Positions 7,640 through 59,979 are shown, counted from the first letter of the stretch. The stretch: 64,000 nt of DNA from a virus (IMGVR_UViG_3300027974_001530); one strand, 5' to 3'. The notes: generated by a model from the sequence alone, not told the origin. Numbers and translations: made by a program.

Positions 7640-7704
7640 AATTAAAATTTAACTTATAATTTTTTTTTATAAAGTTTATTGTCTTATATTATAAATATAT
7701 TCCA

Positions 7705-15026: not shown

Positions 15027-17087
15027 ATGTTAGATTTTGTAGACGATAGTAATGATAAAAATAAAAAAAAGAGTGAGGCCGGAACACCTGTATTAGATAA
15101 TTTTAGTAAAGATCTAATAAAACTTGCCGAACAAGGTAAATTAGACCCAGTAATTGGTAGAGAAAAAGAAATCTTTAGAATTGCCCAAGTTTTATCAAGG
15201 AGGAAAAAAAATAACCCTATTATTATTGGTGAACCAGGAGCAGGTAAAACTGCAATCGTCGAGGGTCTTGCAATGATGATTTATGGTGGAGAGTGCCCAA
15301 AAAATTTGGTAGATAAAAGAATTGTGTCTTTAGACATTAACTCAATTGTTGCCGGCACAAAGTATAGAGGTCAATTTGAAGAAAGAATGAAGGTGATTAT
15401 TGAAGAACTTCAGAACACCCCTAATATTATTTTATTTATAGATGAAATTCATACTATGGTTGGTGCGGGTAATAGTTCAGGTTCTTTAGACGCATCAAAC
15501 ATATTTAAACCTGCGTTATCAAGAGGTGAAATTCAGTGTATTGGAGCAACAACCCTTGATGAATATAGAAGACATTTTGAGAAAGATGGTGCATTAGAAA
15601 GAAGATTCCAAAAGATTATTGTAGATCCATCAACCAAAGAAGAAACGTTTCAAATACTACAACAAAGTAAGGGTAAATATGAAGAACATCATAAGGTTAA
15701 TTATACCGATGAATCACTTCGGTTATGTGTTGAGTTAGCCGATAGATATATTACGGATAGAGAGTTTCCTGATAAGGCTTTTGATATTTTAGATGAGGTT
15801 GGGTCAAGAATGCAAATAGATATAAAATTACCTGAAGAAATTGAGTTATTAAAAGTTGAGGCCCAAGAAATAAAGAAAGAGAAGGCGACCGTTATTAAAA
15901 AACAAAACTACGAACAAGCAGCCGAATTAAGAGATAGAGAAAGAAACGTTTTAATTAAATTAGAAGAGGAGAAAAAGAAATTTGAGGATCATCTTAAAAA
16001 TAGTAAACGAGGTATTCCTGATGAAATCATTTATGAGGTAGTTTCAAACATGACTAAAATTCCTGTTAGTAAAATAAATGTAGATGAGAAAAATTCGTTA
16101 GTTAATCTTGAATTAACTTTAAATAAATACGTTATTGGTCAAGAAGAGGCGGTTGGAAAAATATCAAAATCTATAAGAAGAAATAGAGTTGGGATTAAAG
16201 ACCCTAATAGACCAATCGGTTCGTTTATATTTTTAGGATCAACAGGTGTTGGTAAGACGTTTTTAGCAAAAAAATTAGCAAAAGAAATATTTGGTAGTGA
16301 AGATAGTTTAATAAGAGTTGACATGTCTGAGTACCAAGAGAAACATACCATCTCAAGACTTATTGGATCCCCTCCAGGATATGTGGGACATGAAGAAGGG
16401 GGTCAATTAACAGAACAAGTTAAAAATAAACCATATTCTGTCATACTTTTTGATGAGATTGAGAAGGCAAATAAAGACATATTCGCAACCTTACTACAGA
16501 TGTTAGATGATGGACATTTAACTGATGGGTTAGGCAGAAAGATCAACTTTAAAAACTGTTTAATTATTATGACATCAAATATTGGTGTTAGAAAATTACA
16601 GGACTTTGGGAATGGTGTTGGATTTAAAACAAATAATAATAGTGAAGTTGTCCAAGAGGAGTATAAAAGAGACGTATTGAAAAAAGAATTACGCAAATTT
16701 TTTGCACCTGAATTTTTAAATAGAATTGATGATGTTGTAATATTTAATTCTTTAGTAAAAGAACATATTGATAAAATTGTAAAACTTGAAATTGATAAAC
16801 TAATTGACAGATTAACATCTATGAAATATAACGTTTCTTATGAAGGTTCTGTGACTGATTTTATATCAAAAGTTGGTTTTGATGATCAATACGGAGCAAG
16901 ACCAATTAAAAGAGCGATCCAAGATAAAATCGAAGACTTAATTTCAGAAAAGATATTAAACAATGAGGTTATAGAAGGGGGCGAATATATGTTATTTGTT
17001 AAAGGAGAAGGTGATGATCAAACAATAGAAATTGAGGATAGGTCAAAACCAGAACCAAAGAAAAAAGGAAGAAATAAAAAGGGATAA
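15027..17087 (+). CDS. clpC: ClpC-like AAA+ unfoldase lacking the N-terminal repeat domain
   Basis: Two Walker A motifs (GEPGAGKT, GSTGVGKT), UVR-type middle coil (KKQNYEQAAELRD), VGF ClpP-docking loop; protein starts directly at NBD1. Confidence 0.9.
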   Translation: MLDFVDDSNDKNKKKSEAGTPVLDNFSKDLIKLAEQGKLDPVIGREKEIFRIAQVLSRRKKNNPIIIGEPGAGKTAIVEGLAMMIYGGECPKNLVDKRIVSLDINSIVAGTKYRGQFEERMKVIIEELQNTPNIILFIDEIHTMVGAGNSSGSLDASNIFKPALSRGEIQCIGATTLDEYRRHFEKDGALERRFQKIIVDPSTKEETFQILQQSKGKYEEHHKVNYTDESLRLCVELADRYITDREFPDKAFDILDEVGSRMQIDIKLPEEIELLKVEAQEIKKEKATVIKKQNYEQAAELRDRERNVLIKLEEEKKKFEDHLKNSKRGIPDEIIYEVVSNMTKIPVSKINVDEKNSLVNLELTLNKYVIGQEEAVGKISKSIRRNRVGIKDPNRPIGSFIFLGSTGVGKTFLAKKLAKEIFGSEDSLIRVDMSEYQEKHTISRLIGSPPGYVGHEEGGQLTEQVKNKPYSVILFDEIEKANKDIFATLLQMLDDGHLTDGLGRKINFKNCLIIMTSNIGVRKLQDFGNGVGFKTNNNSEVVQEEYKRDVLKKELRKFFAPEFLNRIDDVVIFNSLVKEHIDKIVKLEIDKLIDRLTSMKYNVSYEGSVTDFISKVGFDDQYGARPIKRAIQDKIEDLISEKILNNEVIEGGEYMLFVKGEGDDQTIEIEDRSKPEPKKKGRNKKG

Positions 17088-25072: not shown

Positions 25073-25681
25073 TTATTGTTGTAAGTGCGTCATTAAAACT
25101 CCACCTAAAGAGGTTGCATGAACCAATAAATGATTTATTGATTCAATGTCAAGTTTTGTTTTTCTTTTTGTGTAATCAAGACCTAAAGTACCTATAAACC
25201 TATCATCAATTGTTTTAATTGCAAATAAGTAACTTGATTTACATCCCGTGTCTTCGGCAATGTATTTTAATCCGTATGTTGCAATTGTTTCATCTTTGAA
25301 GTCGGACACCTCAATTACATCATTACTTAATAATTGATTTATTGATTTTGAAAATAAATTTACGGGAATATTATGAAAATTAGTTTGTACGGATTGAACT
25401 CCTGGATGTACTGTTTCGTACATTATTGAAAACTTAGCCATTGATTTACCTGTTGGGTAGAAGTTACCTCCATTGTGAAATTGAGTTATCCAAACTCTAT
25501 CGGCATTAAATTCATCTTTAATATGTTCTATTTTGTTTGTTACCAACTCCGCAACCCTCAATGTGTCTTTAACCATATCCGGTTTTTCTTTATTCTCTAA
25601 TTTCTTTTTAATATAAAGAAGTAATATGGGACCAACAACTCCTGTTATAAATGCTATTATAATTCCTACATAACTTTCCAT
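25073..25681 (-). CDS. Single-TM protein with GAF-like domain (T4 holin T-like topology)
   Basis: N-terminal TM, then ADRVWITQFHNGG..IGTLGLDY GAF-like pattern. Confidence 0.55.
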   Translation of the reverse strand: MESYVGIIIAFITGVVGPILLLYIKKKLENKEKPDMVKDTLRVAELVTNKIEHIKDEFNADRVWITQFHNGGNFYPTGKSMAKFSIMYETVHPGVQSVQTNFHNIPVNLFSKSINQLLSNDVIEVSDFKDETIATYGLKYIAEDTGCKSSYLFAIKTIDDRFIGTLGLDYTKRKTKLDIESINHLLVHATSLGGVLMTHLQQ

Positions 25682-26340: not shown

Positions 26341-26377
26341 ATTAATTTGATTTATATGATAAATATTACGTTAAATT

Positions 26378-26405
26378 AAAAACCCCCAAAAAATTTGAGG
26401 GTTTT
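26378..26405 (-). terminator. Intrinsic terminator after holin
   Basis: AAAACCCTCAAA..TTGGGGGTTTTT on minus strand. Confidence 0.65.
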
Positions 26406-26422: not shown

Positions 26423-26590
26423 TTATTTTTTATCGACAATAGACCAAATGGCACCTGTTAATGTCATTGCACCACCGATAATTTCGGTTACTACTGACTC
26501 ACTAGCAAGTCCTTTCATTATAAAGATACCACCAACGAATGTTAATCCGTGTCTGATAATCCCCATAATTTGTTCTTTAGATAATTTCAT
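26423..26590 (-). CDS. Putative small holin (55 aa, two TM, Pam3-gp28-like)
   Basis: Manual translation MKLSKEQIMGIIRHGLTFVGGIFIMKG..GGAMTLTGAIWSIVDKK; immediately downstream of endolysin. Confidence 0.7.
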   Translation of the reverse strand: MKLSKEQIMGIIRHGLTFVGGIFIMKGLASESVVTEIIGGAMTLTGAIWSIVDKK

Positions 26591-26627
26591 AAAATTTATT
26601 TTTTTATAGTTTATTTTATTATAAATA

Positions 26628-27452
26628 TCACTTTAATAAGTTATAGTACTCTTTGAAGTGTTTTATTCTATCAGGTAATCCAATAGTTCCACCATTAACT
26701 CGTTTTGTAACTGCGGTAACTGTGACATCATCCGCCCCCTTATCACATATTGACCAAAGTTTGTTTGAGTCAAAAAAGAACGCTGCCGAAGCCAATGGAT
26801 ATTTGGTCGCAACAAGATCAGGATTTGACACACAATCCTCACCAATAAATTTTGTAAAACTCGTATAATTTCCTTTTCCTGTTAATTGTATGTAACCTCT
26901 ACCTCTAAATTTATAACCTTCTTTTGATGTCTCATCTCCGTTACTCATACGGTTAGCATATACCCTTGATGCGATCTTTTCAGGTTGTTTAGCGTATGAT
27001 TCGGCCAAGTTACCAGGAAAGTATTTACCAAACGTTCTTTTTAATCCGTCAGCAGAATAATTTAAATTTTCTGACACCGCCTTAAATCCTCCTGACTCGT
27101 GTCCACACTGTGATAAAAAGTGAGCAAGTCTAAGATTGGTTGTGATATTAAATTTCTTTGCAGTTTCAGGGATTTGGGCAATAACAACATCAGGAATATG
27201 ACCTTTTAATTTTTCAATGTTTAATGGTCCACCTGAAGGAATTACAAAATCTTCTTTAACTACCTGAGTTGTTCCGAACATTTTAGACCAAGTACCATCA
27301 CCAACAATACCATCTGAGGTTAATCCATTAGATAATTGCCATTCTTTTACCGCTTTTTCTGTTCCATGACCAAATGATCCGTCCGCAGTAAGTCCTAATT
27401 TTGTTTGGAGTTTTTTTACATCCTCTCCTTTGGATCCATTTTTTAATAACAT
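26628..27452 (-). CDS. Endolysin: peptidoglycan-binding domain plus GH19 domain
   Basis: LKNGSKGEDVKKLQ..DGIVGDGT (PG-binding); AHFLSQCGHESGGF, RGRGYIQLTG..NY, RVNGG. Confidence 0.93.
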   Translation of the reverse strand: MLLKNGSKGEDVKKLQTKLGLTADGSFGHGTEKAVKEWQLSNGLTSDGIVGDGTWSKMFGTTQVVKEDFVIPSGGPLNIEKLKGHIPDVVIAQIPETAKKFNITTNLRLAHFLSQCGHESGGFKAVSENLNYSADGLKRTFGKYFPGNLAESYAKQPEKIASRVYANRMSNGDETSKEGYKFRGRGYIQLTGKGNYTSFTKFIGEDCVSNPDLVATKYPLASAAFFFDSNKLWSICDKGADDVTVTAVTKRVNGGTIGLPDRIKHFKEYYNLLK

Positions 27453-27464
27453 AGATTTTTTATT

Positions 27465-28139
27465 TTATTGTTTATTTTCTGTTGCGTATTTTATACCCAT
27501 AATAGTTCCCACTATTGAAAAGGCGTTTGTTAGAAGTATCCCAAATATATTAGACCAAGTAGCACTTATTACTTGAGTATCTTTACCCATTATAAGAGTA
27601 AAAACATACACTCCTGTGGTAACAATACCAACACCAATAATAATATAAAGAGCAACTTTTACTATATTGGATATTAATTCTGTTTGGTTTCTTTTTTGGA
27701 GTATATCCAAGTCGTTTAATGCGTTTGTTTTTGCCGTTTCTGACTGAATTCTAGCCTGTTCAGATTTAATCATTTCTTTTTGAAGTTCCTGTTGGATTTT
27801 TTCATTCCCCACTCTCCAATCCATCAATTCCTCGTTCTGTTTTTCTATTTGTTCTTTTTGTTCCTCAGCTTCTTTTAATGTTAACTGAAGATCTTCCATC
27901 ATTTTTTGATTTTCCACATTTAGATTTGATAACTCATTATTTTGCGTTTGAATTTTTTTTGTTATCTCCAATCTTTTACGTCTTGAATCTTTGTCTTTCT
28001 CCGAACACTTAGTTAAGTATGATTTAAATTCATCATTATCTGTTTCAAACAACTTGATAATATTTCCCTCAATCCCAATATTTTTGGAATCAAAGAGTTT
28101 AATTAAATTTTCTTCACTATTTGTATCTAACTTTATCAT
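27465..28139 (-). CDS. Coiled-coil protein with two C-terminal TM helices
   Basis: Heptad-rich middle, two hydrophobic segments; ATGA overlap with the receiver gene. Confidence 0.8.
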   Translation of the reverse strand: MIKLDTNSEENLIKLFDSKNIGIEGNIIKLFETDNDEFKSYLTKCSEKDKDSRRKRLEITKKIQTQNNELSNLNVENQKMMEDLQLTLKEAEEQKEQIEKQNEELMDWRVGNEKIQQELQKEMIKSEQARIQSETAKTNALNDLDILQKRNQTELISNIVKVALYIIIGVGIVTTGVYVFTLIMGKDTQVISATWSNIFGILLTNAFSIVGTIMGIKYATENKQ

Positions 28140-28573
28140 TTATATACTTTAAAAGGTAATGTTCTATTTTTATACCCCTCATAATCCTTTCTGAACTCTT
28201 CTAAACGAGGTTCAATATCATCTGATTTAATAATCCAGAATTGAGCACCAGCCTGGAGCGCTTTTGCTTGTTCTTCCGGTTCGTTTGATGATGATATGAT
28301 ACCAATAACTACGTGATTACCATATTCAAAATTAACTTTTCTAATTAACTCTATACCATCAAAAGAACTACCAATTATGTTTAAGTCAACAAACACACAT
28401 TCAGGTTTATCATTATTGTCACCATCCTGGAACCATTTTTGAAATAGTTTTGCTGCCTCGTCAGAACTATTTAACGCATTTAAAGACAAACTTATGTCAA
28501 GTAACGAACAAGCGTCTTCAAATACCAAATGGAATAAATCCTCATCATCTACTAATAAAATTGAATCAATCAT
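28136..28573 (-). CDS. Stand-alone response regulator receiver
   Basis: LLVDD acidic pocket, FVDLN phospho-Asp, ISSS, WIIKS lysine. Confidence 0.92.
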   Translation of the reverse strand: MIDSILLVDDEDLFHLVFEDACSLLDISLSLNALNSSDEAAKLFQKWFQDGDNNDKPECVFVDLNIIGSSFDGIELIRKVNFEYGNHVVIGIISSSNEPEEQAKALQAGAQFWIIKSDDIEPRLEEFRKDYEGYKNRTLPFKVYK

Positions 28574-28591
28574 TTTTTTCTTTTTTGTTTT

Positions 28592-30211
28592 TTATTTTAT
28601 TTTTATTTTTATTTTTGTTCCTATTTCATTTTTCTCACAGGTAATATTAAACCCGTGTTCTTCTAAAATAGCAACGCAAATATTTAATCCCAAACCAGTA
28701 CCAGATTCTTTTTGTCCTTCTTTTCTTGTATATGGTTTACATAGGTGGTCAAAATCTTCTTGTGTGATTCCTCTACCATTATCTTGAATGTAAACATAAT
28801 TCTCGTCTGAAGTTATTTTAACAAATTTAGAATCCGAATCATTATACTTTAAACCGTTTCTAATCAAGTTATCAACCGCAGTACAAAATAGTGCTTCGTT
28901 TACCTCAATAGTTGGTAACTCATCTATAATAACTTGACTAATATATGCAGTAGATGATAGATAATCAGATAGGATTAATTTTAAATCACATTCCGCTTTA
29001 TTTAAAACAACATCTTTTTTAACCAAATTGGTAAATTCGTAAACCCCTTTATATACTTTTTGAGAATGTTTTAAACCTTCTTTAATCATTCTAAGTGGGG
29101 ATTCTATTTTTAAATTTTTTATATCTTCAGGAGTTAATCTTCGTTCTAAAGAGCTTAATCCTCTTGGCATATATGTATTAATACCAGAGTGCATATCGTG
29201 TCTTAATATCTTTGCGGCATGCTCTAAATAGGTATTTTTCTTTTCAATCTCCATTTGTTGATTAATACTTTGGGTGATGTCAGTGGCGATTTTCATTACT
29301 CTATATGGTTTCCCATCGGTTCCTATGATGGGGTTATATGTCGCTTGGAGATAAATTAAAGATCCGTTTTTTTTCTTTCTAATGATTTCACCCATAAAGA
29401 ATTGACCACCTTTTAAAGTTTTCCAAAAGTTTGAATATTCTTCAGAGTCTTTTACCACATCTTCAACAAATATACTATGATGTTTTCCAACAAGTTCATC
29501 GTGCGAATCATAACCTAAAGTACTTAAAAATAAATCATTTGCAAATTTTATGTTACCATCTAAATCAAATTCAATAACGGCATTTGATCTGTTAATCGCA
29601 TTCATTCTATTTGATATTTCTTGTTCAGTCTTTTTTAAAGAAGTTAAGTCTTGACGAATTGACATAAACTCTAACAATTTACCGTTTTCATCAAAACTAC
29701 ATTTAATAAAAGTATCCACATAATAAAGACTTCCATCTTTTGCCCTATTGACACAAACCTCATTCCAAAGACCCTTATTCACAACAACAGTTTTATACAT
29801 ATTAGACCAAAACTCTTTTGGGTGTGTTCCAGAATTTACAATATTGTGGTCTTTACCAAGAACATCTTCTAATGAATAACCTGAGATTTCGGTAAATTTT
29901 TGATTAACGTATGTAATCTTTCCTTTTGCATCAGCTTTAGATATGATGGAAGAAGAATTTAAGAAATGTTCTAATTCTACCAATTTATCCACCGATTCTT
30001 TAGATACAGTATCTTTAGTGGAATTGATAAAGTCTTTAATTAATAACGCAGATATAGGGATGAGAGAAATAACCCCAAAAAATTCTAGCCATCTAGTTGT
30101 TTCTGTAGATTCTCGTAACCCAATAAGAACCGCAATTTTAACACACATAAATGCAATCATTAGTAAAGCGGCGATAACTAATGTTATTTTTATTCTTAAA
30201 CGATATTTCAT
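28592..30211 (-). CDS. Membrane PAS-PAS sensor histidine kinase
   Basis: Two N-terminal TM; two PAS/PAC domains; LRHD H-box; NLIRNGLKYN, DNGRG, GTGLGL ATPase boxes. Confidence 0.93.
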   Translation of the reverse strand: MKYRLRIKITLVIAALLMIAFMCVKIAVLIGLRESTETTRWLEFFGVISLIPISALLIKDFINSTKDTVSKESVDKLVELEHFLNSSSIISKADAKGKITYVNQKFTEISGYSLEDVLGKDHNIVNSGTHPKEFWSNMYKTVVVNKGLWNEVCVNRAKDGSLYYVDTFIKCSFDENGKLLEFMSIRQDLTSLKKTEQEISNRMNAINRSNAVIEFDLDGNIKFANDLFLSTLGYDSHDELVGKHHSIFVEDVVKDSEEYSNFWKTLKGGQFFMGEIIRKKKNGSLIYLQATYNPIIGTDGKPYRVMKIATDITQSINQQMEIEKKNTYLEHAAKILRHDMHSGINTYMPRGLSSLERRLTPEDIKNLKIESPLRMIKEGLKHSQKVYKGVYEFTNLVKKDVVLNKAECDLKLILSDYLSSTAYISQVIIDELPTIEVNEALFCTAVDNLIRNGLKYNDSDSKFVKITSDENYVYIQDNGRGITQEDFDHLCKPYTRKEGQKESGTGLGLNICVAILEEHGFNITCEKNEIGTKIKIKIK

Positions 30212-30278
30212 ATCAATAAATATGTCCTAACTCTTTACTTTTCAAAGTGAGATATATTTATAATGAAAATTAATTATT

Positions 30279-30875
30279 ATGAGTTATACAAGAGAACAGG
30301 TTGAAACCGCAGTAAAATCCAAAGGTTATGTTTGGTTTGAAGATACATCAAACAAAAGTTACGATGTTAATATCATTGGGATCAGAAATGCCGCTACAGG
30401 ACAAAAAGTTACTAATGTTTTTGATGATTATTTAACATTATCCTATAAAGTAGACGGTCAATGGAAATTCCATATTTGGCCAGCAACTACAGATCCAGGT
30501 AAAAAAGGTGTTATGGAATACCATAATAAAGATGGTGTTGCAAGATTGGTTGAGGGTCAATATAGAGGATCTCACACAATTAGATTACATCAAGGTAAAT
30601 ACGAAGCTTTAGGTCAAGCGAAAAACGTTAAGGTTTATCGTGATGCCAATAAAGATCTAATTTATGATGAGAAAAAAATTACTGAAGGTGTTTATGGTAT
30701 TAACATTCATAAAGCAGGTGCCGATTCAACATATGTTGAGAATTGGTCTGAAGGTTGTCAAGTATTTAAAAAATCTGCGGATTTTGAGGAGTTCATGAAG
30801 ATTTGTAGAAAAGCCAAAGAAATACATGGTAACTCATTTAGTTACACATTAATTAAATCAACAGATATTAAATAA
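30279..30875 (+). CDS. L,D-transpeptidase-like (YkuD-type) protein
   Basis: GINIH..WSEGCQV catalytic His/Cys pattern. Confidence 0.6.
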   Translation: MSYTREQVETAVKSKGYVWFEDTSNKSYDVNIIGIRNAATGQKVTNVFDDYLTLSYKVDGQWKFHIWPATTDPGKKGVMEYHNKDGVARLVEGQYRGSHTIRLHQGKYEALGQAKNVKVYRDANKDLIYDEKKITEGVYGINIHKAGADSTYVENWSEGCQVFKKSADFEEFMKICRKAKEIHGNSFSYTLIKSTDIK

Positions 30876-39418: not shown

Positions 39419-39600
39419 CTTGTTATAAATATATTGTTTTTTCTAAAAATTTTAATTCTTGTACAAATATATGTGATTTTTTTTAATTGACAATCGTTTT
39501 TTCAATATTTTCCTGTTCTTCATCCAATCTACGTAAGAACACGTAGTAATCTTCCGATTCTATAAATTCGTTATGAATTAATTCTAAAATTTCTTCCATA

Positions 39601-56464: not shown

Positions 56465-56728
56465 ATGAAAAATTTTTTTAAACAACTGTTCTGTGACAAC
56501 AACTCAATAAACGAAAAATCCGTAGTAGGGTTTATTGCGTTTATTATGATGTGTTTATTTGCCGGTGCGGATATTGTTACAGGTTTTATGGGATCTCCGT
56601 TAGTGGTTAATGAGTTTATTTTCAATTCATTCCTTATCATTGTGTTAGGGTCTTTTGCTATTGGATCTGTCGATAAATTTATCAATAAAAAACATGGATC
56701 TGAAAACGAAGAAACTCCTGTAGAGTGA
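56465..56728 (+). CDS. Small two-TM membrane protein (holin-like)
   Basis: Two hydrophobic helices and a charged tail. Confidence 0.7.
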   Translation: MKNFFKQLFCDNNSINEKSVVGFIAFIMMCLFAGADIVTGFMGSPLVVNEFIFNSFLIIVLGSFAIGSVDKFINKKHGSENEETPVE

Positions 56729-57230: not shown

Positions 57231-57461
57231 TTACTTTTTCTTTAAAAAGTCCTGAATTACCTTTAATTGTTGGTCAAAATCCTTAGAAAAGTTACCAAAA
57301 TTACCCATTTTTGGGTTTTTTAACATATCTTGGTTCACTTTTGTTAGGTTTTTAGACATTTCAAAGAAAGATTTACCAAATTTTCTCCACCAAAACACCA
57401 TTCCGATAGCAATTGCTACTAAAACTACCGTGAAAATGATTAAAACTACCGTTAACAACAT
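57231..57461 (-). CDS. Small membrane-anchored protein
   Basis: N-terminal TM followed by a basic segment. Confidence 0.7.
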   Translation of the reverse strand: MLLTVVLIIFTVVLVAIAIGMVFWWRKFGKSFFEMSKNLTKVNQDMLKNPKMGNFGNFSKDFDQQLKVIQDFLKKK

Positions 57462-57516: not shown

Positions 57517-59979
57517 TTACCTAATTAATGTTATAAATCCGTGTATTTCCTTCTTTTCATCAGTATTTCCAACACTAAACACTATTTTCCAAGGATAAAC
57601 ACCGTCAGGACATGGTTTATTACCATAAGTCCCGTCCCATTTACCTTCAGGGTCCTTAGATTCCCAAATAATGTTACCCCAACGGTTAAAAACTAACAAT
57701 TCAAACCCATATTTGTCATATCCAGAGGTAAAAACGGGTCCCCAAAGGGTATTATACTCATCACCATTAGGTGTAAACGTGTTTGGGATGTAAAATATCT
57801 CATTTGGACACAATTCTAAGGTTATAATGAAGGTTTCGGGGTTAGAAACACATCCATTGTCCCATCTAACTACTTGAAATTGGAATATTCCATCTTGATC
57901 CCAAGTAATATTTAAGGTTTGACTAATTGTTGTGTCCCCAAACGAGTACCACTCGTTATATCCACCATTTGGAGACACTACATCAAACATATCGGTAATT
58001 GTATCCCCCTCACATATCTCATGATACTCAGTATTTTCAAAAACAACACCGTTTACAACAGGAGAAATGAGTGGTCTTGGGTATATTTGCACATTTATTG
58101 ATGTGTTAAACAAACATCCTGACTGAAAATAGTCATAATTCACAACATCAAGACCAATAAATCCGTTATTTGGACAATATTGACCATTCCAAACGTTTAA
58201 TCCATTAAAAATCCCACCTTGTGGGGTTCCATTTAGGTTAATACAGTTGTCGTATTCACAAAATGGACCAACTTGAGTGATCGACGGAAGAATATTTAAC
58301 ACAACAAGGTTAAAAGTTTCAGGTAATGACTGACATCCAAGTTGATTTACACCAATAACTGATAGTGAGTTAGAATAATTACCCCCATTTACGCCAGTAA
58401 CATCTAAATTTATTTGGTCTGTCCCTTGTCCTGTGGTAATATTACCTATTGTGTTGGACCAAACATACCCTAAGTTAGGAAAAACACTTGTAACACCATA
58501 AGGATTAACTGTAGAGTTATAACAAACCGTATCTAAACCTGTGATTTGGTTAACTGTAACCATCGGAGGATCAACTAAAGTGGTTGTTCCTTGTGCAGGA
58601 CAGTTATATTGGTCATAAACCGTTACAGTTTGTTGACCTGAACATAGATTTGTTACCGTTTGAGTGGTTTGACTGTTACCCCAAAGGAATGTATAAGGTG
58701 ATACACCATCAATTGGGTTCACAGTTGATGTTCCATCACAATAACCAAAACAAGTTGGGTTAGTATTTGCAAATTGTGGTGATTGTAATGGTGGAGGATT
58801 AAGTAAAGTTGCTGATCCACTGTAAGTGCAACCTGCAGCATCAACTAAATTAAACAAATAGTTACCACTACATAAGTTGTTTAGGGTTAAGTTTGTTGAT
58901 CCACCGTTCCAAGAGATAGTTGTTACTCCTGTTCCACCATTAGGGGTTACTATAATTGATCCATCACACCCATTATTACAGTGTGGATCTTGTAAAACTA
59001 AATTTGGTGGTGGTAATTGTGGTGGACCATGTTGAACAAACACAGTATCAGGACCTAAATTACCAATACCTACATTACAAGTAGACCATCCCGCATTACA
59101 GGTTGGATAAACAAATTGACAGGTGTAATTTGCACCTGCGGGTGGTGGTGTAACGGTAATTGTTGGTCCAGTTCCAATTGGATTTGGGTTACCTACTTGA
59201 TACCAAGTTAAAGTTGGTGTTACTGTAGGACCTGAAGGAGTCCATCTATATGAGTTATTTACCGTAGTCCAAGCAGTTGAATTTCTTCCTGGTGATGTAA
59301 TACCAATAGTACCCAATAAATTATGAATTCCTTGAGTTGCGGTTCCACTTTGCCATTGTAAACAAGCCGGTTTATTTTGAATGTGGTTTTCAATATAATT
59401 TGTTGATTCGTAAATTACAATATGAAATGTACCAAAGTTAGAGGTACAAGAAAACATTGGCATATTTGTCCAACTAACAACTAATTTTCTACACGGAGCA
59501 ACACCCTGAACTTGATATTTTATTTGACCACCAATACCTGGATGCCAATCTTGCCACGGTCCCATAATACAATTCTTAGGTACTAATGCGTTTCCTGTTG
59601 GAATAGGTTGTGATGTAAACGTTACGGGTTGTCCTCCACTAAATGAAATCCAACCATTAGACCCAATATAAAATTGTGTATATGTTTGACCAAAGAAACA
59701 AAAATTAAACCCAATATTAAATGGTCCTTGTTGTGAGTCGTCAGACATAAACAAACTTGTTCCCGTATTTGTTTGAGCAACATAAGGTATATTTGTTACA
59801 CCATAGTTTGTTGTTTGGTTTGGATTTGGTCCACCAGGTCCACACTGACTTAAATCCGCTGTTAAAGTGGTTGAGTTAATACCACAAGGTAATAATTGAT
59901 CGGGGCCTAAGTATGGACAATACTGACCGTGTCCAAGTACTGTAATTAAAATTAGTAATGTTGTTAAAATAAGTTTCAT
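57517..59979 (-). CDS. T9SS type-B CTD (gliding motility-associated CTD) surface protein with SprB-like repeats
   Basis: Signal peptide; P.C...CDGS.....GGT repeats; YIPNTFTPNGD.YN..VFNRWG..WDG C-terminus. Confidence 0.88.
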   Translation of the reverse strand: MKLILTTLLILITVLGHGQYCPYLGPDQLLPCGINSTTLTADLSQCGPGGPNPNQTTNYGVTNIPYVAQTNTGTSLFMSDDSQQGPFNIGFNFCFFGQTYTQFYIGSNGWISFSGGQPVTFTSQPIPTGNALVPKNCIMGPWQDWHPGIGGQIKYQVQGVAPCRKLVVSWTNMPMFSCTSNFGTFHIVIYESTNYIENHIQNKPACLQWQSGTATQGIHNLLGTIGITSPGRNSTAWTTVNNSYRWTPSGPTVTPTLTWYQVGNPNPIGTGPTITVTPPPAGANYTCQFVYPTCNAGWSTCNVGIGNLGPDTVFVQHGPPQLPPPNLVLQDPHCNNGCDGSIIVTPNGGTGVTTISWNGGSTNLTLNNLCSGNYLFNLVDAAGCTYSGSATLLNPPPLQSPQFANTNPTCFGYCDGTSTVNPIDGVSPYTFLWGNSQTTQTVTNLCSGQQTVTVYDQYNCPAQGTTTLVDPPMVTVNQITGLDTVCYNSTVNPYGVTSVFPNLGYVWSNTIGNITTGQGTDQINLDVTGVNGGNYSNSLSVIGVNQLGCQSLPETFNLVVLNILPSITQVGPFCEYDNCINLNGTPQGGIFNGLNVWNGQYCPNNGFIGLDVVNYDYFQSGCLFNTSINVQIYPRPLISPVVNGVVFENTEYHEICEGDTITDMFDVVSPNGGYNEWYSFGDTTISQTLNITWDQDGIFQFQVVRWDNGCVSNPETFIITLELCPNEIFYIPNTFTPNGDEYNTLWGPVFTSGYDKYGFELLVFNRWGNIIWESKDPEGKWDGTYGNKPCPDGVYPWKIVFSVGNTDEKKEIHGFITLIR

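Follow-up and report, generated by a model that had tools for sequence, protein, structure and literature searches.

The locus described here lies between positions 26,423 and 30,211 of a viral DNA stretch of 64,000 nucleotides (IMGVR_UViG_3300027974_001530), the whole of which is referred to as the window. Five open reading frames (ORFs) on the minus strand encode, in this order, a sensor histidine kinase, a single-domain response regulator (the receiver), a coiled-coil protein with two transmembrane (TM) segments (termed CC), an endolysin and a holin; the gaps between them are 18, -4, 12 and 37 nt. Such a set of five co-oriented genes had been described in an earlier reading of the window made without database searches (the sequence-only reading), and all ORFs were recovered at their places, with kinase, receiver, endolysin and holin intact. 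Across relatives, the conserved unit is the trio of kinase (or kinases), receiver and CC and not the set of five genes. We propose that the trio constitutes a phage-owned, three-part phosphorelay with a membrane output which is used for lysis timing, a reading to which a probability of roughly 0.45 is assigned.

The kinase gene (28592..30211, minus strand) codes for a protein of 539 aa, which was assigned by means of Pfam, hydropathy, PDB sequence matches and the conservation of catalytic boxes. A 2-TM anchor (aa 3-63) is followed by the domains PAS-A (~85-195) and PAS-B (~205-315), a DHp domain and a HATPase_c domain (442-538). Pfam detected two PAS domains (PAS_3, E = 3.5e-22) and HATPase_c (1.5e-16). 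The phospho-acceptor H338 is located in the motif R-H-D, the N-box spans residues 448-457, and DNGRG and GTGLGL are found at 477 and 504, respectively. The block Y-L-E-H-A-A-K-I-L-R-H-D-M-H-S-G-I-N is near-invariant across 70 homologues, in which the N, G1 and G2 boxes are conserved as well; the atypical H-box (R-H-D-M-H-S-G) was not matched by the Pfam HisKA model. The protein is a predicted two-component sensor histidine kinase with the architecture PAS-PAS-DHp-HATPase_c.

PDB sequence searches with PAS-A (29627..29959, minus strand) and PAS-B gave MmoS as best match (3EWK, E = 7.5e-28), and further matches were 2GJ3 (1.9e-13) and 8DIK (8.5e-13). The two domains align to the tandem PAS of MmoS, with PAS-B falling on the PAS-B of that protein, and PAS-A aligns in addition with PAS1 of NifL and the PAS domain of Aer. 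In the structure of Aer, H53, N85 and R115 (H132, N164 and R195 in MmoS) are flavin-pocket residues that set a low redox potential (PMC9668731). Their counterparts in the phage kinase are H122, N155 and R186, which form, together with W149, a putative pocket for flavin adenine dinucleotide; none of the four varies among the 55 homologues compared. The N-cap threonine (T18 in Aer, T103 in MmoS) is replaced by Ala93 in the window and is present in 14 of the 55 relatives. The first PAS domain had been assigned to the Aer/NifL flavin type, with which both the match to MmoS and the invariant pocket agree. PAS-A is thus best read as a flavin redox sensor of the MmoS/Aer/NifL type, and a flavin or redox input to the kinase appears reasonably probable. 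The phage protein resembles MmoS, NifL and Aer in the PAS-A/PAS-B alignment and in the conserved flavin-contacting His, Asn and Arg, and shares with Aer a membrane hairpin anchor with almost no periplasmic loop. It differs from these proteins in being encoded by a phage, in the alanine at the T18/T103 position and in the H-box missed by HisKA.

The receiver (28136..28573, minus strand; 145 aa) matches Pfam Response_reg (PF00072) with E = 4.4e-8 and 33.7 bits (cut-off 30.2). In an alignment of 45 sequences, in which mean column identity amounts to 90%, residues D9/D10, D63, S94-96 and K116 are invariant, and the protein carries a conserved C-terminal tail of 28 aa. The catalytic residues of kinase and receiver are hence intact, as had been stated in the sequence-only reading. 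The claim that the receiver has no DNA-binding output was borne out, too: Response_reg is its sole domain, and no LytTR DNA-binding domain, as used in LytSR-type regulation, was found in it.

CC (27465..28139, minus strand) consists of 224 aa, and its start codon overlaps the stop codon of the receiver gene (ATGA). Its putative input part comprises a small N-terminal domain and a conserved helix (aa 1 to ~110); a long helix in the cytoplasm leads from there to a juxtamembrane motif and the TM hairpin (aa 153-221, the putative output), which was also seen in hydropathy. An AlphaFold2 model with a predicted local distance difference test score (pLDDT) of 86.6 shows two short N-terminal helices, a helix from 36 to 183 which runs into the membrane and a TM helix at 189-221. 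As CC is devoid of a signal peptide, the long helix must be cytoplasmic and thus reside in the same compartment as the receiver. Mean column identity among CC proteins is 63%, with invariant islands at E24-G25-N26, F38, Y41, the helix R-K-R-L-E-I-T-K-x-I-Q and the hairpin from W195 to Y218. Lake metagenomes contain the family in great abundance: 6680 CC homologues were counted in metagenomes, along with over 100 viral contigs, the longest of which measures 304 kb. A profile search against 1.84 billion representatives retrieved merely 262 clusters, which points to a closed family; those matches that were checked derive from contigs of metagenomes, and in the Atlas the three closest clusters are viral and unnamed. 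CC had no match in the PDB at E <= 0.001 and was not assigned to any Pfam or PHROG family, the weak matches being V_ATPase_I (0.0048) and phrog_1544 (7e-4).

The endolysin (26628..27452, minus strand; 274 aa) is composed of PG_binding_1 (6e-12, 46.0 bits against a cut-off of 23) and Glyco_hydro_19 (3.6e-9, 37.2 against 25.5) and belongs to phrog_181 (3e-65). According to hydropathy it possesses neither a signal peptide nor a TM segment and therefore needs a membrane lesion to reach its substrate. The holin (26423..26590, minus strand; 55 aa) is a member of the Pam3 gp28 family (Phage_holin_10, PF23987; 6e-15, 55.4 bits against a cut-off of 27).

Transcription units were delimited with the help of the octamer ATATTTAT, of which the window contains 35 copies compared to 16.7 +/- 4.1 expected. 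Nearly every copy is located just upstream of a gene start or a tRNA array on the matching strand, and the octamer is for this reason read as the promoter-like core of a phage promoter. One copy (30216..30223, minus strand) is situated 4 nt upstream of the kinase ATG, a spacing that recurs in about 24 relatives. Several copies elsewhere likewise end just 4-5 nt before an ATG, which suggests leaderless or near-leaderless transcripts. No copy was found between the kinase and the end of the endolysin gene, either in the window or in about 31 relatives (29 counted by script plus L025 and L082, whose adjacent endolysin was seen in gene strings). In the same relatives the endolysin gene starts 10-14 nt after CC. 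The sequence-only reading had noted that the first four genes follow each other closely without a terminator, and a scan of the window indeed revealed no terminator-like site between kinase and endolysin; nor was one seen there in the approximately 31 relatives. Given a promoter-like motif upstream of the kinase and none inside, the four genes from kinase to endolysin appear to be transcribed as a single unit.

A further copy of ATATTTAT (26621..26628, minus strand) precedes the holin start by 30 nt. In 13 of 13 relatives the holin copy is found at 29-31 nt, even when a 0.9-kb gene is inserted after the endolysin. The holin is followed by an intrinsic-terminator-like hairpin with a T-run (approximately 26374..26405, minus strand; -18.5 kcal/mol, z = -3.69), and a hairpin of the same kind with compensatory stem changes is present in 13 of 13 relatives. 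With a promoter-like motif and a terminator of its own, the holin gene appears to be a semi-independent unit which read-through from the operon may reach. The proposal that the two-component genes are co-transcribed with the lysis genes is thus supported for the endolysin, in front of which there is neither motif nor terminator, but weakened for the holin. Other copies of the octamer lie at 26359-26366, 7691-7698 and 39425-39432 (all minus strand), among others, and one copy precedes the next gene downstream of the holin. A scan of the window for sigma-70 promoters yielded 33 sites versus 39 expected. In two lake metatranscriptome runs, 5-7% of the sampled words were present; the contigs obtained are short and mostly from relatives, and one of them spans the kinase/receiver junction, the contigs carrying no information on strand or co-transcription.

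Kinase and CC queries were used to fetch 130 loci, 66 of which are distinct. Sixty of these carry all three genes, and in each of the 60 the kinase or kinases, receiver and CC occur together, with receiver and CC always abutting or overlapping. It is very probable that the trio is real and functional. Sensor architectures vary and include, apart from 2TM-PAS-PAS as in the window, 2TM-GAF-PAS-PAS, soluble GAF-PAS-PAS, 2TM-GAF-PAS and soluble PAS-PAS. While sensors are swapped or added in relatives (GAF domains, a second kinase with a periplasmic domain), receiver and CC remain unchanged. All kinases of the family have the same DHp block, so that several inputs feed into a single receiver and a single CC.

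Additional genes were observed at or near the trio of relatives. The second kinase (440-484 aa, with signal peptide and periplasmic domain) is encoded between the first kinase and the receiver (L060, L101, L108 and others), and is preceded by a gene for a secreted coiled-coil protein of about 205 aa. In locus L069 a GIY-YIG homing endonuclease is inserted before the receiver, and in one clade (L010, L034, L064, L069) an ORF for a DnaK/Hsp70-like protein of about 616-629 aa is found near the module.

Fusion proteins were informative with respect to the two parts of CC. In P0175, P0178 and P0138 the N-terminal part is replaced by PAS-PAS, PAS and GAF, respectively, which are joined to the last cytoplasmic turns and the hairpin; neither kinase nor receiver is present at these loci. 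Because directly fused PAS or GAF domains can take the place of the N-terminal part, it follows from the architecture that the hairpin would be an output driven either by the pairing of receiver and N-domain or by a sensor in the same polypeptide. In other fusions (P0244, P0265, P0267) the N-terminal 95-116 residues of CC are linked to a classical HisKA/HATPase_c core.

The latter arrangement is part of a chromosomal operon of Bacteroidota (L133, L136, L149), which consists of kinase, receiver and a CC N-domain::HisKA/HATPase_c protein. Kinase and receiver are 55-62% and 65-69% identical to those of the phage, with the same H-box in the kinase, and the N-domain is 36-41% identical to phage CC over residues 1-108. 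The overlap between the receiver stop codon and the start codon of its partner is kept. The surroundings are chromosomal, with a GC content of 0.40 and SusC-like, CreD and type IX secretion system (T9SS) substrate genes as neighbours. The phage system differs in that its third gene ends in a membrane hairpin and not in a kinase core. Since the chromosomal operon retains the pairing with another output, it follows that the pairing of receiver and CC N-domain would predate the phage module and be kept when the output changes. No description of this predicted receiver-docking N-domain shared with a Bacteroidota kinase was found in the literature, and it is considered new.

The similarity of the two systems raises the possibility that the relay interferes with the homologous host pathway, the phage receiver acting on N-domain kinases of the host, or CC serving as a sink for the host receiver, so that Bacteroidota signalling is rewired during infection. 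The existence of a related chromosomal operon and the unusual conservation of the receiver, as expected if it fits a conserved partner, would be in line with such a role. On the other hand, the phage brings its own complete and coupled set of kinase, receiver and partner. Moreover, 401 sampled genomes of Bacteroidota species yielded no chromosomal-type receiver at E <= 1e-25, and the cellular pathway therefore seems rare; two named Bacteroidota genomes yielded none at E <= 1e-10 either. A search of the genome collection with the bacterial N-domain kinase gave matches limited to relatives of the kinase core. Interference with host signalling is accordingly regarded as improbable.

The predicted contact between receiver and CC was addressed by complex prediction. 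The receiver together with CC residues 1-165 reached an ipSAE of 0.37, compared to 0.00 for the best control, and was classified as "weak support". At least 75% of the contacts agree between runs, and the pLDDT of the partner is at least 85. Of 80 solved complexes, 58 attained the pass mark, as did two of 110 mismatches; among passes with a score of 0.60 or below are seven of the 80 solved complexes and both mismatches. The sequence-only reading had concluded that the receiver must act through protein contact, for which it had proposed the coupled membrane protein as partner. The invariant adjacency of the two genes, the fusions, the bacterial operon and the weak pass in complex prediction all speak in favour of this proposal, and it is somewhat probable that the receiver docks on the N-domain of CC and thereby switches the membrane hairpin.

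Single-domain receivers which act by contact are known: DivK binds the kinase-like protein DivL, and CheY binds FliM. The phage receiver is similar in that it lacks an output domain and that gene coupling defines its likeliest partner. A further parallel to DivK-DivL is that the partner in the chromosomal relative is the N-terminal domain of a second kinase. By contrast, the partner in the phage is a new, phage-restricted coiled-coil protein with a membrane hairpin, and the docking is predicted from a weakly scoring model.

The same data bear on the question of whether CC might be a structural protein for lysis, akin to a spanin or holin, with the two-component genes as unrelated upstream passengers. 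A coiled-coil membrane protein encoded directly before an endolysin would suit such a role. However, CC has neither an N-terminal TM segment nor a lipobox, so that its coiled coil is cytoplasmic, and its TM hairpin is C-terminal, which disqualifies it as a spanin. Receiver and CC are never separated in the 60 loci, their stop and start codons overlap, and the CC N-domain accompanies the receiver in the bacterial operon, too. This explanation is very improbable.

The preferred reading, a phosphorelay with membrane output, can be formulated as follows. The membrane-anchored kinase would read the redox or respiratory state of the host via its flavin-type PAS domain, and H338, judging from the intact residues, would pass phosphate to D63 of the receiver. 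As suggested by comparative architecture, the phosphorylated receiver would then dock on CC residues 1 to ~110, and the signal would run down the long cytoplasmic helix to the two-helix membrane hairpin as the effector. The hairpin may alter membrane permeability or holin behaviour and in this way set the time of endolysin action. Holins are triggered when the proton-motive force collapses, and a sensor of respiration would therefore read a variable which is already relevant to lysis. With the trio and the holin-dependent GH19 endolysin on one promoter, the output would advance or delay permeabilisation and endolysin release. This is the least secure step, and that the output concerns lysis at all is rated at slightly below even odds. 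A more specific version, in which CC is a phosphorylation-gated switch that opens or holds shut an oligomeric hairpin deciding on endolysin access, and in which the kinase core of the host relay protein was swapped for an effector, is tentative and rather unlikely in all its parts.

The genomic link between trio and endolysin was evaluated in the 66 distinct loci. The endolysin is the commonest neighbour of the trio (45 of 66); in some loci it is divergently encoded beside the kinase or is separated from the trio by one to three small genes. In G407, a relative with a complete genome of 304 kb, it lies beside CC, while the holin homologue is found 35 kb away in a block that flanks the module in the window. 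In this clade, the endolysin is thus seen to travel with the trio and not with the holin. In loci without a nearby endolysin, a small 2-TM gene (c5, c12 or c29) usually follows or meets CC. In L152 the endolysin cluster includes a c12-like protein, and the gene immediately after the GAF-hairpin fusion is c5. L131 and L132, where fusions are located, have the make-up of lysis-like cassettes, with genes for a 2-TM protein, a TM plus coiled-coil protein, a lipoprotein, GH19 and a glucosaminidase.

Several findings weigh against a function in lysis. A tree of receiver and CC splits the family into two clades, in one of which the endolysin adjoins CC in about 27 of 33 loci, whereas this applies to a single locus among the 27 of the other clade; shared ancestry therefore accounts for much of the linkage. 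In the sister of the window (L014/G404) the endolysin is about 75 kb from the intact trio, and the record, which is 87% complete, contains no holin homologue; trio and endolysin are about 40 kb apart in L041/G408. About 17 loci have an operon in which CC is the last gene. The endolysins of L131 and L132 are related (70% and 61% identity), and the two cassettes may therefore go back to a single inherited locus, in which case they would not count as independent. A canonical holin unit, complete with promoter and terminator, is already encoded by the phage, and CC itself is not holin-like in size and lacks a fold or family match: with a cytoplasmic N-terminal part of about 150 aa, a tail of 8 aa and no match to a holin family it was rejected as a classical holin. 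The weak score of the receiver/CC complex counts on the same side.

These observations would be explained if the relay controlled a membrane process other than lysis, such as host energy or membrane physiology, superinfection exclusion or envelope remodelling, and if the endolysin merely reflected inherited gene order. Besides the distant endolysins, the clade-bound adjacency and the canonical holin unit, the other frequent neighbours of the trio, i.e. a T9SS-secreted SprB/PKD protein, DnaK and a phosphoesterase, are compatible with such an output. Yet the endolysin is the most frequent neighbour and is predicted to be co-transcribed in a whole clade, the fusion variants are located inside lysis-like cassettes, and in loci that lack the endolysin CC is accompanied by small 2-TM genes. 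A non-lysis output is a serious though somewhat unlikely alternative. With respect to the sequence-only reading, which had named unlinked lysis genes in relatives as evidence against itself, the survey gave a divided answer. The endolysin adjoins the trio in one clade, but about half of the family has no endolysin in the operon, and this absence, together with the separation in the sister lineage, is partly what had been named. Tuning of lysis timing by the phosphorelay is accordingly favoured by the joint unit of trio and endolysin and by CC as likely output, but disfavoured by the endolysin lying outside the operon in about half of the family.

Known systems of lysis control offer partial parallels. 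In T4 lysis inhibition, which senses superinfection, RI and RIII act on the holin T by direct binding. Under the reading proposed here, the phage relay would be similar in that a signal at infection time adjusts the timing of the membrane lesion; T4, however, has no phosphorelay or redox sensor, and the link from relay to holin is so far a proposal. LytSR with LrgAB/CidAB of staphylococci and Bacillus is likewise a two-component system, connected with membrane proteins of the holin/antiholin type and with how well the membrane is energised. In that case LytR is a DNA-binding LytTR transcription regulator, and the system is cellular and transcriptional, whereas the relay considered here is viral and its receiver lacks a DNA-binding domain.

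The individual parts, i.e. kinase, receiver, GH19 endolysin, holin and flavin-type PAS, are of known families. A literature search yielded no paper on a phage-encoded two-component system of this kind, nor on CC, its N-domain or the combination of a complete relay and an endolysin in a single operon. For a lytic phage, the chief life-history decision is when to lyse the host; to our knowledge, this depends on holin accumulation and, in T4, on signals of superinfection. If the proposal is correct, a virus-owned relay which reads host redox or energy state would represent a new and ecologically relevant kind of lysis control, and the CC switch would be the first case of phosphorelay-timed phage lysis. 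Independently of lysis, the family provides a natural example of modular signalling in which a sensor-kinase-receiver input is interchangeable with a fused PAS or GAF domain, and it reveals a new predicted receiver-docking domain common to phages and Bacteroidota.

Further genes in the window may be connected with the cell envelope. Divergently from the kinase, positions 30279..30875 (plus strand) encode a protein of 198 aa of phrog_3000 (1.3e-35; weak match to endolysin phrog_33083, 5e-12), the gene of which adjoins the kinase in 22 loci. As it directly follows the endolysin in L152, it is probably a second cell-wall enzyme. The protein contains an H...S-x-G-C motif reminiscent of YkuD-type peptidoglycan enzymes. 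The gene at 25073-25681 (minus strand) codes for a 202-aa protein with an N-terminal TM helix and is conserved after the holin, being located directly downstream of it in 14 relatives; the gene also belongs to the block around the holin in G407. This protein has neither a family assignment nor a counterpart in the PDB, and PDB sequence searches with the 198-aa and 202-aa neighbours returned nothing useful. Two small membrane proteins, the homologues of c5 (56465-56728, plus strand; 87 aa, 2 TM) and c15 (57231-57461, minus strand; 76 aa, N-terminal TM), are encoded 26 kb away in the window and beside CC or just after the endolysin in relatives. They are candidates for extra holin-like genes; a database search with c5 led to DUF2644 only. 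At positions 4609-6764 of L131 and 6955-7843 of L132, a TM plus coiled-coil protein (93-99 aa) and a coiled-coil lipoprotein with lipobox (125-150 aa) are encoded beside GH19 endolysins, and these pairs are spanin-like candidates for Bacteroidota phages.

The window has a GC content of about 31% and encodes a portal protein, a large terminase, a Lon-like ATP-dependent protease (15027-17087, plus strand; phrog_4871, 2.4e-234) and 22 tRNA genes. Related IMG/VR contigs are as long as 304 kb, and the source is a jumbo phage, a large freshwater phage of Bacteroidota. The host assignment is based on an 820-aa protein (57517-59979, minus strand) that is 64% identical to the T9SS-secreted homologue encoded by a relative, which combines SprB repeats with a PKD domain and a type IX secretion signal of the CHU_C type. 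About 11 relatives carry this gene immediately upstream of their kinase. In a blastn search against the phage GenBank collection the endolysin alone was matched, the matching genomes being two uncultured huge phages and Cellulophaga phage phi14:2.

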